From NCBI RefSeq assembly GCF_988243305.1, contig NZ_OZ547136.1: DNA of 64,000 nt; one strand, written 5' to 3'. Both the position numbers and the translations under genes were made by a program. The stretch's first letter is position 1. Each line of letters starts with the position of its first letter. The notes under the pieces are model-generated. The model was given only the letters and a program-made list of their open reading frames with translations, ran no database searches and was not told the origin of the DNA. Shown here in pieces: positions 3,091 through 51,853 of the stretch.

Positions 3091-3933
<843 letters not shown>

Positions 3934-5987: not shown

Positions 5988-6004
5988 ATTAACGTAAGGT
6001 GGCC

Positions 6005-6026
6005 AGGTCAGATTTCAATCTGACCT
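6005..6026 (+). terminator. hairpin downstream of glpD (possible terminator)
   Basis: Inverted repeat aggtcagat-ttca-atctgacct 18 bp after the glpD stop; no clean T-run follows. Confidence 0.35.
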
Positions 6027-6051
6027 GAGACTGATGATAAACAAAAAAACT

Positions 6052-6155
6052 GCCTGATGCGCTACGCTTATCAGGCCTACGTGGTTTATGCAATATATTG
6101 AATTTGCATGATTTTGTAGACCAATAAGACGTTCACGTCGCATCCGGCATGGACA
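6052..6155. repeat. REP (repetitive extragenic palindromic) elements
   Basis: gcctgatgcgctacgcttatcaggcctac and gacgttcacgtcgcatccggcatgg resemble the E. coli REP consensus. Confidence 0.7.
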
Positions 6156-6493
6156 AAGCGCATATACAACCGATAACCAAAGTTGTAATTCCAGAAGTGA
6201 AATACGCCTGATCATGAGCGGGATAGAGAACAGTATCTCCCCAGAAAACTCAGCGTAATAATACAAGCAGCCAGCGCAACCACCGTCGGCCATATCAAGA
6301 ACGGTACAATAATAAAGCCGAGAAATACCACACCTAGCAGCAAAACACCGTGAATTTGTTCATCGCGCTAATTCCTTTCCCTCGAGGGTTATTTCATTGT
6401 GGGATACATCGGCACATAACCCATATTTTCCATCAAACTTTACCCTACCGATGGCTAAAAACGGGCTAATCCGATTCTGCACTGACTCACACA

Positions 6494-7645
6494 TCACTGG
6501 TATTCCACCCGCAAAACAGCCAGGGCATTATAACGACCCGCAGCAGGGCGTCGCCCTGTGGTACTTACAGGGAGAGACAGAAAAGTCACATCTGCCGTCT
6601 GAGCTGACTCAGCCCGGTTTTCAACTAACTTAAATGGCACACCAACATGCGCAGCAAGAGCGTTCAAGTCTACGGATTCCTGTTGGCTATCCATAATCAT
6701 AATGCCAACGTCGGGGTTATCCTCCGCCTGAATAATGCTTTGCCGACCATTAACATCTCTCGTTGATGAAATATTGCCATCAAAAACCAGCGTCATTACG
6801 GCATCAATATCTTTGTTCGTACAGTTTATCGGAATAGTGGTTGCCACTGGAGAAACGCCCGTGGGCTTCACTCCAGCACCAGCCCGACTTAATTCGCTGG
6901 CCCAGACATCCGGCATATTAACGGTAAAACTAGTTCCCTCATTAATTGTGCAACCTTGTGGAACTTCAATATTTAAGTTGCCAATATAAGCATTAAATAC
7001 TGGAATTGGTCCGTGCTCTGTTGGAAACTGGCTGACATACAAAGAAACCAGCAATACGTTATTTATTGATATATCGGATATTATTTTTTTATCAAGTCTG
7101 ATTTTTATATAACCTTCTGTTCCTGAGGCCCAACTTGATGGTTTACTTCTGTCTGCTGGATAATTGGTGCTATAGTTGTCAAAAGGTACTGCCTTATCTG
7201 TCATTGTGCCATTTTTATTATAGAGCTTTACATGTGTCGAGACAGATATTTCATGAGTCAAAGGAATAAATATATCGCTCCCCTGATGATCACCAGACGC
7301 TCCTGACGGATCAATCCCAGAAACACCAGAAAAATAAACCTCATAATCATCCAGAGAATTACAATAAGCCTTATAATGCCCTATTTTCCAGTCCTGCGAG
7401 GGTAATACTGTCCCAGGCGAATTATTATTAACATCTGAGACAATTACCGTACCAAAATTATAAGAAAATGTCGCAGGAGTAGTATTATTACCTGGTGCAC
7501 CAGGATAACAAAAGGCGCGATCCCGTCCCATATCTTCAGCATATACTATGTTATAGCAGCTACTGACTAAAAGAACAAACAATATACAAATTGCTTTTAT
7601 ATTTCCCCAAAAATAAGTAAGCATCATGCTTCTCCAGTTATCCAT
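6494..7645 (-). CDS. fimbrial tip adhesin-like subunit
   Basis: 383-aa ORF, last gene of the fimbrial operon; N-terminal signal peptide; C-terminus ends VEYQ like FimH-type pilins. Confidence 0.7.
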   Translation of the reverse strand: MDNWRSMMLTYFWGNIKAICILFVLLVSSCYNIVYAEDMGRDRAFCYPGAPGNNTTPATFSYNFGTVIVSDVNNNSPGTVLPSQDWKIGHYKAYCNSLDDYEVYFSGVSGIDPSGASGDHQGSDIFIPLTHEISVSTHVKLYNKNGTMTDKAVPFDNYSTNYPADRSKPSSWASGTEGYIKIRLDKKIISDISINNVLLVSLYVSQFPTEHGPIPVFNAYIGNLNIEVPQGCTINEGTSFTVNMPDVWASELSRAGAGVKPTGVSPVATTIPINCTNKDIDAVMTLVFDGNISSTRDVNGRQSIIQAEDNPDVGIMIMDSQQESVDLNALAAHVGVPFKLVENRAESAQTADVTFLSLPVSTTGRRPAAGRYNALAVLRVEYQ

Positions 7646-9487: not shown

Positions 9488-11436
9488 TCCAGATTTGCAT
9501 AGCTAATGGCATTATCCAGTTCGCTTTTCGGTAATTGATAACTTGCCCGACATTGCTGATAAGCACTTTCTCCCCACTGTATATTTATTATGCCTTGTAA
9601 AGGCAAACCGGAGAGATAAACCTGCCCACTGTCACCCACTATTCCTGTAATCTGAGTTGTCCCCTCAGTGGGTACACTGACCGTCGCACCAAATGGAACT
9701 GGTTTATTACGATAGTGAACATTAAATAAACCTCGAATACCGACATGTGCATTAAACTCAGCACGAACTAAAGCACCTTTGCTGGGTATCACTTCCATAG
9801 TAGTAGCATCTAATTCTGTATGCATACTCATAGACATAGGGTCTAAAGAGATATTATTACGCCGATATTCCGTGGCATAAGGTACGACAGCATAGCCACG
9901 CCAGTCTGTTTTAACCCCCGTTCCGCGTTCCACATTTACATTGTTTGCCCCAGGTGCTTTTATCAGTATATTTGTTTCACCTAACGGCTGACTTAGCGTG
10001 AGACCATTTTCGTGAACAACCAGGGCCCCACTTAAACCATAGTTAAATTGCTGGTTACCATTATTATCGTAGCTGTATCCAGAATTTAGTGAACCATATG
10101 TACCACGGTAATTTAAACCTACCGCGCCATTTTCGCCATTATTCTGGTTAGCAAAATTTTGTTGAATATTATAGTTGAGATTATGTTGTTCCAGCAGCGA
10201 TCCAGATACTCCAGCATACTGATTCACATGACCGCTATTATCCTGACTATAACCATAAGTTGCTGTCATAGAATTTGTCGCAGTACGCCCATCGACAGCT
10301 GGTGATAACCAATTGCTGATCGGCAATGAGACATTTACGGATAAGATTCTGTCCGCATCTGAACCTGGTGACTTGCTATAATTATAAGCAATATTTAAAT
10401 AAATCCCATGTACACTCGTATTATAGCCGACCTGATACAAGGTATCTTTATTATTCGTATTCCAGTAAGTTTGTTGACTTGCCGCCAAATACATAGAGCC
10501 ATATTCGCCCAATGGTTGCGATATATTTGCCTGAAACTTTCCTCTTTTGCTATAACGTAAATTATAAAAATCATTCCAGTTATAAACATAGTCTTTTTCA
10601 TTAAGGGTATCTGGATCGATAACCGTACCCGACATTTGTTTGTATGTGGTATCACTCAACGAATAAAATCCCTCCGTCGAATAGCGATAACCAATAATCT
10701 GAAAAGCCGTACCTGTCTGCACTAACGATTTTGAATATAGGAAACGGTACGATTGCCCTTGATGTTTACTGCCATCGGCAAGCGTGCTATTGGCTTGCGT
10801 TAAATCAAATGACGTCGCACCAAACATACCAAGGTTGAACCCAAGCCCGAGTGCTATTGCCCGATAATTATTTGAGTATTGCATCCCTCCGTAGGCGGTA
10901 ATATCCCAGGGTAACCCCCAAATCAAATCTCCTTGAAAGACATTCGGACTGTTTTGATTATAGCTATTGCTACGATATTTACCGGCAGTTGCCGAATATT
11001 TAATATGCCCTTCGCGTTGAAGAATGGGAACAGCGGCGTAAGGAATAGTATAGATAGTTTCGGAATTATCAGACTCTTTGATCGTAACTTCCAAATCCCC
11101 AGCGGAAGACGTAGGGTTCAGATCGTTGATTTCAAAGGGTCCCGGTGGAGTATATGTCTGATAAATAACATAGCCATTTTGTTTGATCGTTACCTGAGCA
11201 TTGCTTTTAGCAATACCGCGCACAGTGGGGGCAAAACCACTTTGGCTATCGGGTAGCATGTTTTCATCGGATTCAAGTTTAGCACCACGAATACTCACAC
11301 TGTCGAAAACATCCGATGAAGACCAGGTACTGATGAATCCCCTAATGATTTTGGTAAAAATCATTAAGTTAAGGTAGATACACATCTTGTCATATGATCA
11401 AATGGTTTCGCCAAAAATCAATAATCAGACAACAAG

Positions 11437-33494: not shown

Positions 33495-33614
33495 GATTTC
33501 GTCCTTTTTAAGGTGGTTATTTACACCTTAGCGCAAAGCGGACGTGGTTCCTACTGGAGTGCGCATAACGAACACAAGCACTTCCCGTGGATAAATTGAA
33601 AACGAAAGATCAAA

Positions 33615-33706
33615 AAAAAAGCCAGCACCCGGCTGGCTAAGTAATACTGGAAGCAATGTGAGCAATGTCGTGCTTTCAGGTTCTCCGCGAGGGTCTTCCT
33701 GATCGC
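33615..33706 (-). ncRNA. ryhB: RyhB small RNA (Fur-repressed iron-sparing sRNA)
   Basis: Minus strand reads gcgatcaggaagaccctcgcggagaacctgaaagcacgacattgctcacattgcttccagtattacttagccagccgggtgctggctttt: terminator hairpin plus U-run, at the expected yhhX-yhhY position. Confidence 0.9.
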
Positions 33707-33828: not shown

Positions 33829-34317
33829 ATGAGTGAGATAGTGATACGCCATGCTGAAACGCGCGATTACGAGGCCATCAGGCAGATTCACGCCCAGCCG
33901 GAGGTGTATTGCAACACGCTACAGGTGCCTCATCCTTCCGATCATATGTGGCAGGAGCGACTCGCCGATCGTCCCGGCATCAAGCAACTCGTCGCCTGTA
34001 TTGATGGAGACGTCGTGGGCCATCTCACCATTGACGTGCAACAGCGCCCACGCCGCAGTCATGTTGCAGATTTTGGTATTTGTGTCGACTCCCGTTGGAA
34101 GAATCGCGGCGTCGCCAGCGCCCTGATGCGAGAGATGATTGAAATGTGCGACAACTGGTTGCGGGTAGATCGTATTGAGCTAACGGTGTTCATCGATAAC
34201 GCGCCAGCAATTAAGGTCTATAAAAAATTTGGATTTGAGATTGAAGGGACTGGCAAGAAGTACGCATTACGTAATGGTGAATATGTCGATGCGTATTATA
34301 TGGCGCGGGTGAAGTAA
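33829..34317 (+). CDS. yhhY: GNAT-family N-acetyltransferase YhhY
   Basis: ORF 33736..34317; start trimmed to MSEIVIRHAETRDYEAIRQIH giving 162 aa. Confidence 0.85.
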   Translation: MSEIVIRHAETRDYEAIRQIHAQPEVYCNTLQVPHPSDHMWQERLADRPGIKQLVACIDGDVVGHLTIDVQQRPRRSHVADFGICVDSRWKNRGVASALMREMIEMCDNWLRVDRIELTVFIDNAPAIKVYKKFGFEIEGTGKKYALRNGEYVDAYYMARVK

Positions 34318-34551
34318 GATAGTGCCCTTTTTCTGAGATGGAAAAAGGGTGTCATTCAAAATCGGCATACCTTCCTTTAATGTATTTATTTTCCCAATAA
34401 ATATATAAGATTTACCTCATAATTACGTCCTAAAGTGTAATATTTTATTATTAATATATACGCCTACAATTTCCTGGAGTAAATAAATAACAATTAACAA
34501 GCATAATAGTGCCATTAATAAAATAGCATGCCATAAAAGGACTTTTCAGGG

Positions 34552-35730
34552 ATGAGTAATATTGTTTACCTGACAGTAACGGGAGAACAACAAGGAAACA
34601 TCTCCGCAGGTTGTGGGACTACTGAATCTATAGGTAATCGCTGGCAGAGTGGGCATGAGGATGAAATATTTACATTCTCACTCGCAAATAGAATTACTAA
34701 TACGGGACTTGGTTCACAGTTACAGGGTATGACATTTTGTAAATTAATTGATAAAAGCACTCCATTACTTATTAATTCCATTAACAATAATGAGCAATTA
34801 TTTATGGAATTTGACTTTTATAGAATCAATAGATTTGGTAGATGGGAAAAGTATTATTATATACAACTAAGAGGCGCTTTTTTATCGGCTATTCATCATC
34901 AGATCATTCAAAATCAACTGGATACAGAAACAATAACTGTTAGTTATGAATTTATCCTCTGTCAACATCTTATCGCAAATACCGAGTTCAGCTATTTGGC
35001 ACTCCCTGAAAATTATAACCGTTTGTTTTTACCAAATTCAAAAAACCAAACAAATAATCGTTTCAAAACTTTAAACAGCAAAGCTATTGGCAGGCTACTT
35101 GCTGCTGGTGGCGTATACAATGGGAACATTGAAGGATTCAGAGATACTGCGGAAAAACTGGGTGGAGATGCAATAAAAGGCTATGATCAAATACTAAATG
35201 AAAAAACAGCGGGCATAGCGATAGCAACAGCATCTATTCTTTTAACAAAGCGTTCTAATGTTGATACATATACAGAAATAAATAGTTACTTAGGCAAACT
35301 TAGAGGTCAACAAAAACTTCTTGATGGTATAGACATAATAGAAATAATATACATTAAGAGACCTTCAAAAGACTTAGCTAACTTACGAAAGGAGTTTAAT
35401 AAAACTGTAAGAAAAAATTTTCTTATCAAACTTGCAAAAACCTCCGAAGCATCTGGAAGATTCAACGCCGAAGACCTTTTAAGAATGAGAAAGGGCAATG
35501 TTCCTCTAAATTATAATGTTCACCATAAACTATCTCTAGATGATGGTGGTACTAATGATTTCGAAAATTTAGTATTAATCGAAAACGAACCATATCATAA
35601 AGTTTTTACTAACATGCAATCACGAATAGCTAAGGGAGTATTAGTAGGTGAAAGCAAAATCACTCCCTGGGCCATTCCATCTGGCTCAATTTATCCTCCC
35701 ATGAAAAATATTATGGAACCCACAAAATGA
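34552..35730 (+). CDS. yhhZ: Hcp-domain protein with C-terminal HNH/AHH-like nuclease toxin extension
   Basis: 392-aa ORF; N-terminal ~160 aa Hcp-like, C-terminus has the VHHKLSLDDGGTNDFENLVLIENEPYH motif; AT-rich gene. Confidence 0.8.
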   Translation: MSNIVYLTVTGEQQGNISAGCGTTESIGNRWQSGHEDEIFTFSLANRITNTGLGSQLQGMTFCKLIDKSTPLLINSINNNEQLFMEFDFYRINRFGRWEKYYYIQLRGAFLSAIHHQIIQNQLDTETITVSYEFILCQHLIANTEFSYLALPENYNRLFLPNSKNQTNNRFKTLNSKAIGRLLAAGGVYNGNIEGFRDTAEKLGGDAIKGYDQILNEKTAGIAIATASILLTKRSNVDTYTEINSYLGKLRGQQKLLDGIDIIEIIYIKRPSKDLANLRKEFNKTVRKNFLIKLAKTSEASGRFNAEDLLRMRKGNVPLNYNVHHKLSLDDGGTNDFENLVLIENEPYHKVFTNMQSRIAKGVLVGESKITPWAIPSGSIYPPMKNIMEPTK

Positions 35731-36221
35731 TGACTAAGACCCAAATAAATAAATTAAAAAAAATGATGAATGATTTAGACTATCCATTTGAAGCACCGCT
35801 TAAGGAATCATTTATTGAAAGTATAATCCAAATAGAATTTAATTCTAATTCAACTAATTGCCTGGAGAAGTTATGTAATGAAGTTAGTATTCTTTTTAAG
35901 AATCAACCTGATTATCTTACTTTTTTAAGAGCAATGGATGGATTCGAAGCTAATGGATTACGATTATTTAGCCTCTCGATTCCAGAACCTTCAGTTAAAA
36001 ACCTTTTTGCCGTAAATGAATTTTATAGAAATAATGATGATTTCATAAACCCTGATCTACAAGAACGGTTAGTGATCGGTGATGATAGCATTTCAATATT
36101 TACTTATGACATTAAAAATAACTTTTTTGAAATTAGAGATAATATTGGCACCGAAAATATATTCAGTTCGTTTAGTGATTTCTCTTCATTCTTAAACGAA
36201 ATCATGGACAGTTGTTCATAA
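35727..36221 (+). CDS. yrhA: putative cognate immunity protein of the YhhZ toxin (intact here)
   Basis: 164-aa acidic ORF whose start overlaps the yhhZ stop by 4 bp (ATGA), consistent with translational coupling. Confidence 0.65.
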   Translation: MMTKTQINKLKKMMNDLDYPFEAPLKESFIESIIQIEFNSNSTNCLEKLCNEVSILFKNQPDYLTFLRAMDGFEANGLRLFSLSIPEPSVKNLFAVNEFYRNNDDFINPDLQERLVIGDDSISIFTYDIKNNFFEIRDNIGTENIFSSFSDFSSFLNEIMDSCS

Positions 36222-36306
36222 TAATCAAAAGATAACAAAAATCATTGTAAACCATGCCATCTTTTTAGAGATTACCAGCAGAAAATTCCTTGTTCGAAAC
36301 TTAGCA

Positions 36307-36432
36307 ATGCAAGCTATGGAAAAACTTACAACGGAACTACACTCCTTAAGTGAGATGGACCGAAGACATGTAATCTCTATTTTAGCCGAAATAGCTAATG
36401 GCTATGATGATTTTAGTGACATGTTGATTTAG
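36307..36432 (+). pseudogene. short orphan ORF fragment in the toxin-locus tail
   Basis: 41-codon ORF MQAMEKLTTELHSLSEMDRRHVISILAEIANGYDDFSDMLI in AT-rich DNA; a further start-less coding-like stretch lies at ~36480-36636. Confidence 0.35.
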
Positions 36433-36670
36433 TTAGAATTTCACCCGAATCATAAGATTCTGATATCTTAAATAAGAAAATCCCGTTCGACGTTCTGAAA
36501 AAGAAATCACAAAATATTAGCAGATACTTATTTCGTGACTGTATATTATCCGATGAACTTTTTTCAAAACTAGCATTTAATAATATCTTTGACGAAGATG
36601 AACGCGTCTTTGCTCAAAGTATAACGCAGGAATAATAATATAACGTTCAACAATAATATTTATTATAATT

Positions 36671-50672: not shown

Positions 50673-51056
50673 ATGAAGCTGACCATCATTCGATTAGAAA
50701 ACTTTAGCGACCAGGACCGGATTGACCTGCAAAAGATCTGGCCGGAGTATTCCCCTTCCTCTTTACAGGTTGACGATAACCACCGTATCTACGCCGCGCG
50801 TTTTAACGAGCGCCTCCTAGCGGCCGTGCGGGTAACCTTAAGCGGCACCGAGGGGGCACTGGATTCTCTACGTGTGCGGGAAGTCACCCGCCGTCGCGGT
50901 GTGGGGCAATATCTGCTGGAAGAGGTTTTGCGTACCAATCCTGGCGTTTTAGGCTGGTGGATGGCGGATGCTGGCGTGGAAGATCGCGGTGTGATGACGG
51001 CGTTTATGCAGGCGCTGGGGTTTACGGCACAACAGGGCGGCTGGGAGAAGCGTTAA
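50673..51056 (+). CDS. panM: PanD maturation factor PanM (PanZ), GNAT fold
   Basis: 127-aa ORF MKLTIIRLENFSDQDRIDLQKIWPEY. Confidence 0.85.
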   Translation: MKLTIIRLENFSDQDRIDLQKIWPEYSPSSLQVDDNHRIYAARFNERLLAAVRVTLSGTEGALDSLRVREVTRRRGVGQYLLEEVLRTNPGVLGWWMADAGVEDRGVMTAFMQALGFTAQQGGWEKR

Positions 51057-51580
51057 TCGCTCTGTGTAAAAAGCAGTTCAATGGATTTGGTTGGGAAAAA
51101 TAACGCATTTTCGTTTTCTCCGACCAGCGGGATAAAGCCCAGCGACTGATAAAACGTATGGGCTTTTTCATTCAGCGCCTCGACAAAAAGACCGTGAATA
51201 CCTACCGCTAAAGAGGCTGACCAGACGACTTTCATGGCATGAGCAACCAGTGTTGCTCCCCATCCCTGTCCCTGTAATGAACGATCAATTGCCAGACGCC
51301 CAAGAGTGACGCTGGGAATATTTTTGTAGGGAATTTTTTTCTGTTTCGATTTCGAGGGCAATGCGGCTCGTTCAAAACAACTGCCGGATAATGTGTAATA
51401 TCCCAGGACCTGACGTTCTGGAGTGTTGCGACAAAGGATATACGCTCGCAGAATTTTATTGCGATGTTGACGAATCAGATGTGCCGTCAGAAAGAGATTT
51501 AACGCTTCCTCGCCGCAGTCGAATCGCTGTAGATCATAATCTGCATCATCGGTCAGAATCTCTATCGTCAGATCATCCAT
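51053..51580 (-). CDS. GNAT-family acetyltransferase toxin (TacT/AtaT/ItaT-like)
   Basis: 175-aa ORF with an acetyl-CoA-binding-like QGQGWGATLV motif, immediately downstream of a small RHH-type ORF. Confidence 0.7.
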   Translation of the reverse strand: MDDLTIEILTDDADYDLQRFDCGEEALNLFLTAHLIRQHRNKILRAYILCRNTPERQVLGYYTLSGSCFERAALPSKSKQKKIPYKNIPSVTLGRLAIDRSLQGQGWGATLVAHAMKVVWSASLAVGIHGLFVEALNEKAHTFYQSLGFIPLVGENENALFFPTKSIELLFTQSD

Positions 51581-51586
51581 AAATGA

Positions 51587-51853
51587 TTACATTCCCTGAA
51601 GACGTTTTGTCGCACGTTTTAGCTTTTCACCTGGCGACGGTGGATTACTCAGCGCATCCATCACCCGCGTCCAGGATTCCTCATTGAGGATCACCCGCCG
51701 ATGCTGTTCAATCACTTCCGCAGCCCGCTGCGAAGCGCTGTTCAACATAAATTGGCTGACGGACTGATTAGATATCGCTGCCGCTTCCTCAATCATACTT
51801 TTGTCATCGTCAGTTAAACGCAGATCGATACGCTGCTTTTTAACAGCAGACAT
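51587..51853 (-). CDS. DUF1778-like RHH antitoxin (TacA/AtaR-like)
   Basis: 88-aa ORF MSAVKKQRIDLRLTDDDKSMIEEAAAISNQSVSQFML, ribbon-helix-helix-like N-terminus; 6 bp upstream of the GNAT gene. Confidence 0.7.
   Translation of the reverse strand: MSAVKKQRIDLRLTDDDKSMIEEAAAISNQSVSQFMLNSASQRAAEVIEQHRRVILNEESWTRVMDALSNPPSPGEKLKRATKRLQGM

Follow-up and report, generated by a model that had tools for sequence, protein, structure and literature searches.

The yhhZ-yrhA pair of Escherichia coli is probably an Hcp-fused nuclease toxin and its immunity gene, encoded apart from any type VI secretion cluster

The 64,000-nucleotide stretch analyzed here (hereafter the window; contig NZ_OZ547136.1 of RefSeq assembly GCF_988243305.1) is a piece of the Escherichia coli chromosome that holds two overlapping open reading frames (ORFs) between yhhY and ggt. 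They are preceded by yhhW, yhhX, and yhhY and followed by yrhD, yrhB, ggt, yhhA, and ugpQ, and the two ORFs are therefore, by their positions and flanking genes, yhhZ and yrhA. We judge from sequence comparison and structural models, at a probability of roughly 85%, that they form an Hcp-ET (Hcp with extended toxin) effector-immunity pair that is unlinked to any type VI secretion system (T6SS) cluster and that corresponds to Hcp-ET1/ETI1.

The first frame, yhhZ (34552-35730, plus strand), opens with an ATG, encodes 392 amino acids, and carries the RefSeq label tssD / Hcp1 family T6SS effector. The second, yrhA (35727-36221, plus strand), also opens with an ATG and encodes 164 amino acids. Its start codon lies over the yhhZ stop: at the junction aaaATGAtg the yrhA ATG occupies 35727-35729 and the yhhZ TGA 35728-35730, a 4-nt overlap already recognized in an earlier interpretation made from the letters alone (the sequence-only reading). 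Both genes sit in an AT-rich island that spans the whole intergenic space from the yhhY stop to the ggt stop (34318-36992, no strand), where the composition profile shows ~32% GC versus ~52% in the flanks. Genomes with an empty site align with the window only to 34316 and then again from 36993. The island is present in 3762 of 5426 complete E. coli genomes and the yhhZ-yrhA locus in 3756-3762 of them, with both frames intact in the window and in ~69% of complete genomes. Pairwise ratios of nonsynonymous to synonymous polymorphism (pN/pS) are ~0.2-0.5 for yhhZ and 0.15-0.3 for yrhA, values that come from small counts and are merely indicative of purifying selection. Carriage at this frequency and pN/pS below 1 together argue that yhhZ-yrhA is not a chance pair of ORFs.

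YhhZ begins with a domain of the T6SS tube protein Hcp (residues 1-147; 34552-34992, plus strand), as the sequence-only reading had proposed. This region matches NCBIfam TIGR03344 (E = 2.4e-36; 125 bits against a cut-off of 58.9), Pfam T6SS_HCP (PF05638; E = 2e-12), and the solved Hcp structures 3he1, 6a2v, and 5mxn (E = 1e-12 to 3e-11). Past it the protein extends for another 245 residues, starting with a conserved linker (residues 148-243; 34993-35280, plus strand) that is common to Hcp proteins with other toxin ends and to proteins fronted by the DUF8093 domain. The linker contains the most hydrophobic stretch of the protein (residues 219-233, TAGIAIATASILLTK, the hydropathy maximum), and AlphaFold confidence is low across its length.

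The remainder of the extension, residues 244-383 (35281-35700, plus strand), is by profile and fold comparison a predicted His-Me finger/HNH nuclease domain with all of the invariant catalytic residues. The single-sequence match to Pfam HNH (PF01844) is weak (E = 0.013, 16 bits, residues 322-343 only). A profile of the toxin family searched against the PDB reaches the HNH domain of Cas8f-HNH (E = 1e-4) and the DNase domains of pyocin AP41 (E = 0.007) and colicin E7 (E = 0.011-0.03), and the domain shows the ββα-metal fold of His-Me finger/HNH nucleases. A nuclease-fold match for the C-terminus, proposed beforehand as the test of the assignment, was thus obtained both by profile and by fold comparison. 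Fourteen residues are invariant in an alignment of 28 diverse relatives (R270, R279, F282, G315, H324, H325, L329, D330, G333, N335, N339, L342, H349, and Q356) and YhhZ of the window keeps every one. Among them, H324, H325, N335, N339, and H349 account for the catalytic histidine, structural asparagine, and metal-binding histidine of the fold, and the catalytic core from H324 to H349 is encoded at 35521-35598 (plus strand). The earlier label of an HNH/AHH-like motif holds for its HNH part, given the profile, the fold, and a VHH...N...H pattern of the HNH/colicin-DNase type. Its AHH part does not, and we rejected that family because a Pfam scan returned no AHH match and the motif reads V323-H324-H325 rather than [AG]HH. 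In an exhaustive search the toxin domain appeared in 645 representative clusters, always C-terminal, in proteins of ~140 to 1542 residues, and an NCBIfam search of the long carriers found no trafficking domain apart from LysM repeats in one protein.

The product of the second frame, YrhA, is acidic (isoelectric point 4.33; 26 D+E versus 14 K+R), in agreement with the sequence-only reading, and matches the NCBIfam YrhA family (NF038335). A Pfam scan of YrhA matched no family, the SUKH families included, and its profile searched against PDB sequences returned noise only; YrhA is therefore placed by fold comparison only. A model built from 21 homologues (predicted local distance difference test, pLDDT, 86; predicted template-modeling score, pTM, 0.84) shows the SUKH α/β fold and matches the T6SS immunity proteins 8g0k_D (score 8.2) and 6itw (6.7), as well as RhsPI of the SMI1/KNR4 family (5.2). 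YrhA thus models as a protein of the SUKH (Smi1/Knr4) immunity fold. Its link to SUKH by sequence is indirect, running from the YrhA profile to a neighbor gene of a related toxin that carries PF09346 SMI1_KNR4 (E = 2.5e-11).

Gene context is a stronger argument than fold for a role of YrhA in immunity. In Enterobacter roggenkampii, a 381-residue DUF8093 protein is 62% identical to YhhZ residues 152-382, and the next gene encodes a protein with 62% identity to YrhA. Each of three distant relatives of the toxin domain, one of them with a PT-TG pre-toxin domain, is followed by a gene encoding 140-164 amino acids; Pfam SMI1_KNR4 is present in two of these three neighbors, and the YrhA profile matches all of them (E = 3e-16 to 3e-7). 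Because YrhA homologues follow the toxin domain on different carriers, toxin and immunity appear to be inherited together, which is the signature expected of a cognate pair. The predicted SUKH fold and the homologues beside the toxin domain in unrelated proteins therefore lend support to the proposal, also made from the letters alone, that YrhA is the cognate immunity protein.

In previous work YhhZ was termed an "evolved Hcp" whose HNH domain is degenerate (Blondel et al. 2009, PMC2907695), and it was later assigned to His-Me finger group 32 (Jablonska et al. 2017, PMC5714182). Hcp-ET1/ETI1 is an HNH DNase effector with its immunity protein, delivered by T6SS2 in strain STEC004 (Ma et al. 2017, Virulence 8:1189, as relayed by reviews and a preprint), and these secondary sources (reviews including PMC6730261, and bioRxiv 2024.03.05.583533) report DNase activity and T6SS2-dependent delivery and killing. 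Like the pair in the window, it joins an HNH DNase C-terminus to an Hcp N-terminus and has its immunity gene directly 3', away from T6SS clusters. [quoted passage not shown] The EAEC strain E. coli 55989 has a 392-residue yhhZ and a 164-residue yrhA at the same yhhY/ggt site, and YhhZ of the window departs from the 55989 protein at 20 of 392 residues, with the differences concentrated in the Hcp domain. YhhZ has both the N-terminal Hcp (TssD) domain and the C-terminal toxin extension that mark Hcp-ET proteins; the immunity gene expected directly 3' is present as yrhA, with its overlap of the yhhZ stop, its predicted SUKH fold, and its co-occurring homologues. We equate YhhZ/YrhA with Hcp-ET1/ETI1 with high but not complete certainty. 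A paper attributing methionine-to-cysteine conversion to yhhZ-yrhAB (PMC3309015) was set aside as a probable name collision with yrhA/yrhB of Bacillus subtilis.

Other nuclease toxins differ from the pair in carrier or in immunity fold. The DNases of colicins E7 and E9 and of pyocins S2 and AP41 are countered by four-helix immunity proteins of the Im7/Im9 type, whereas YrhA has a predicted SUKH fold, and they are delivered by receptor-binding and translocation domains, whereas YhhZ is an Hcp fusion; the match of YhhZ to Pfam Col-Pyo_DNase is insignificant (E = 1.9). The Rhs2-CT HNH toxin/RhsI2 of Serratia marcescens and RhsP(WHH)/RhsPI ride on Rhs/PAAR carriers, in contrast to the Hcp carrier of YhhZ.

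No T6SS core gene lies within the window, exactly as the sequence-only reading had stated. Its description of the module as an orphan is accurate only with respect to position: at aspV, 1.37 Mb from the locus, the closest complete genome carries an entire T6SS cluster. The Hcp domain of YhhZ is 40% identical to the Hcp at the end of that cluster. A related cluster (TssC 77% identical) occupies this aspV place in E. coli 55989, and 2267 of 5426 complete E. coli genomes have a tssC of the 55989 type.

By inference and from the literature on the orthologue, YhhZ would join the Hcp rings of a T6SS encoded elsewhere and be fired into neighboring bacteria, where its nuclease end would degrade DNA. 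YrhA would bind and block the nuclease domain in the producer and its kin, and the ATGA overlap would tie YrhA synthesis to YhhZ synthesis. The conserved Hcp-linker scaffold accepts exchangeable toxin/immunity cassettes, and HNH-yrhA-yrhD appears to have displaced a papain-like end and left its Imm35 gene behind as yrhB.

Comparison with K-12 MG1655 confirmed the statement in the sequence-only reading that yrhA is split there by IS1 and forms an uninterrupted 164-codon ORF here. Annotation, alignment, and a two-piece match all show the K-12 frame identical to the window through codon 130, after which IS1E cuts it, in agreement with the literature (PMC12428005). YhhZ of K-12 (b3442) is the orthologue at the same locus, and its toxin region is identical to that of the window over residues 131-361. 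Compared with the K-12/55989 allele, yhhZ of the window differs at 26 of its first 450 nt and at 4-5 of the 729 nt that follow, and this concentration of divergence in the Hcp part suggests a recombination junction inside yhhZ.

The scaffold on which the toxin sits is shared with other toxin ends. Hcp-linker proteins related to YhhZ occur in E. coli, Citrobacter, Salmonella, and Enterobacter, and among the best 120 matches similarity to YhhZ stops at residues 220-265, beyond which at least eight other C-terminal families follow (at least nine counting HNH), including Gln_amidase (Tox-PL1), Colicin_D, and DUF6883. At the yhhY/ggt site itself, an Hcp-Gln_amidase gene with an Imm35 gene directly after it is found in an E. 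coli-like metagenome contig (L014) and in Citrobacter portucalensis (L015-17). Contig L014 is continuous with the window to 35208, codon 219 of yhhZ, at 95.6% identity, and the match resumes at 36667, four bases 5' of yrhB, at 92.0% identity. The segment between these breaks (35209-36666, plus strand) comprises the linker end, the HNH toxin domain, yrhA, and yrhD. With at least nine toxin ends, breaks at 35208 and 36667, and 645 clusters bearing the toxin domain, the locus has the character of a polymorphic toxin system as described by Zhang et al. (2012).

The gene beyond the second break, yrhB (36671-36955, plus strand), encodes a 94-residue protein that matches Pfam Imm35 (PF15567) over its full length (E = 5.2e-22) and is 81% identical to the Imm35 protein of L014. 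Imm35 has been reported only beside Tox-PL1 (Zhang et al. 2012, PMC3482391). The window contains no Tox-PL1 (Gln_amidase) toxin adjoining YrhB, and given the pairing in L014 and C. portucalensis we therefore class yrhB as an orphan immunity gene. The L014 breakpoints and the Imm35 identity of YrhB further indicate that the segment at 35209-36666 displaced a papain-like toxin end and left yrhB stranded, a detail that appears to be new. The displaced end would be of the type of Hcp-ET5/ETI5, a papain-like peptidase module (Ma et al. 2017) to which L014 is likened by type: Gln_amidase and Imm35 occupy the same scaffold and site in L014, and the window keeps the Imm35 gene only, with HNH-yrhA-yrhD in place of the toxin end. 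The sequence-only reading was thus correct in pairing yhhZ with yrhA but drew the module too narrowly, because yrhB adds a second immunity gene, one whose cognate toxin is not YhhZ.

Other genomes show the site in further states: empty, with yrhB alone and no yhhZ (in some E. coli), or with IS1 in place of the island. In O157:H7 strain 3384, a 303-residue DUF4225 protein stands instead of yhhZ-yrhA-yrhB (L009:1528-2439); this protein had no PADLOC match. The empty, yrhB-only, IS1, and DUF4225 states fit the picture of a polymorphic site. The small acidic ORF yrhD (36307-36432, plus strand; identified by ORF and alignment) has 41 codons in the window, through an earlier stop, versus 51 in K-12, and in several genomes RefSeq annotates it as partial or interrupted by a stop codon. 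It is variable and probably decaying, perhaps no longer a gene but a remnant.

The same linker, HNH toxin, and YrhA-like gene also occur behind DUF8093 (PF26362) in place of Hcp in Enterobacter, Klebsiella, Leclercia, Pantoea, Serratia, and Erwinia; in L002-L005 (E. roggenkampii and metagenome contigs) the DUF8093-HNH gene lies at 6001-7146. By hhalign, DUF8093 is unrelated to Hcp in sequence (probability 0.3%). A third N-terminal type may exist in Pantoea. The occurrence of the linker-toxin-immunity unit behind DUF8093 in other Enterobacterales likewise appears to be a new detail. We offer only tentatively the joint proposal that yhhY/ggt is a long-lived cassette-swapping site in Escherichia and Citrobacter and that the linker, whose short hydrophobic stretch falls where the swaps occur, is a portable module also used behind DUF8093.

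Several observations count against reading yhhZ-yrhA as a T6SS effector-immunity pair. The availability of a T6SS is drawn from the closest genome and not from the window's own, the equation with Hcp-ET1 rests on locus, architecture, and secondary sources, the toxin-immunity unit occurs without any Hcp domain, and ~30% of E. coli lack the island. In K-12, for which no T6SS has been reported (review PMC6730261), YhhZ is intact and one amino acid from the 55989 protein even though yrhA is broken, so the toxin has to be silent, harmless, or tolerated in that strain. The same configuration would be expected if the pair were a decaying or selfish relic that no T6SS delivers any longer in many strains, and that survives only because its AT-rich island is silenced or because toxin and immunity gene act like an addiction pair. 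Such a relic would also agree with an IS3 within yhhZ in one genome, loss of the whole island via IS1 in others, the empty site in ~30% of genomes, the decay of yrhD, the tabulation of yhhZ and yrhA among AT-rich "promoter islands" in a passage on how H-NS binds them (PMC3661553), and a yhhZ-yrhA deletion that arose spontaneously in laboratory clones. We nonetheless regard it as unlikely: both frames remain intact in the window and in most complete genomes, pN/pS is below 1, the invariant catalytic residues are all kept, the closest genome has a complete T6SS, and T6SS2-dependent killing is reported for Hcp-ET1 in secondary accounts.

The fusion to DUF8093, with its dissimilarity to Hcp, would also suit a role inside the cell, such as that of an abortive-infection or defense nuclease checked by YrhA, in which Hcp would be incidental; in some Enterobacter contigs the unit moreover adjoins an integrase and an AAA_15/AAA_21 ATPase. 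This is very improbable, as PADLOC defense models match none of YhhZ, YrhA, YrhB, or the DUF8093 protein, the toxin domain is always C-terminal in long and varied proteins, including one with PT-TG, which is the pattern of polymorphic secreted toxins, SUKH proteins are classic immunity partners of such toxins (PMC3482391), and data on the delivery of Hcp-ET1 have been published. As for which protein confers immunity, YrhB has the clear Pfam match (Imm35, E = 5e-22) that YrhA lacks, and it could be YrhB that neutralizes the YhhZ nuclease while YrhA is otherwise employed. However, the HNH domain is trailed by YrhA homologues rather than Imm35 in Enterobacter and in the distant toxins, Imm35 follows the Gln_amidase version of the scaffold at the same site, its specificity for Tox-PL1 has been reported (PMC3482391), and yrhB persists alone in genomes without yhhZ, which together make this assignment scarcely credible. 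An Hcp-ET effector-immunity pair made of yhhZ and yrhA is the reading we retain.

Scans of 34250-37050 for promoters and terminators found sites no more numerous than in shuffled sequence, and an Rfam search gave no match within the island. Between yhhX and yhhY is the gene for the small RNA RyhB (33613-33677, minus strand; Rfam RF00057, 83 bits, E = 2e-15), ~0.9 kb 5' of yhhZ. Elsewhere in the window, a segment of ~2.6 kb (11330-13971) that is not in the closest genome matches an IS4-like (ISVsa5) and an IS3-family element and apparently disrupts a fimbrial usher gene. In the closest genome, an ataR-ataT type II toxin-antitoxin pair is annotated between livJ and panM (L007:12226-13026), corresponding by collinearity alone to about 51053-51853 (minus strand) of the window.

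The finding of yhhZ-yrhA is itself already known, and the yrhB displacement and the DUF8093 variant are small additions to it. If our reading is right, the pair is one contact-dependent weapon among E. coli strains, to which the allele in the window adds nothing new. Under the common labels "tssD / tube protein" (yhhZ) and "YrhB family protein" (yrhB), a toxin and an immunity gene are easily overlooked, and the locus offers a compact natural case of toxin-end displacement on an Hcp scaffold. If the linker is a portable module, DUF8093 may represent a novel trafficking domain that serves this nuclease in Enterobacter, Klebsiella, Pantoea, Serratia, and Erwinia. If the reading of the site holds, yrhB is a fossil Imm35 gene, perhaps still protective against Hcp-papain-like toxins of the Hcp-ET5 type, and strains that carry yrhA or yrhB without the toxin may resist neighbors bearing the matching Hcp toxins.

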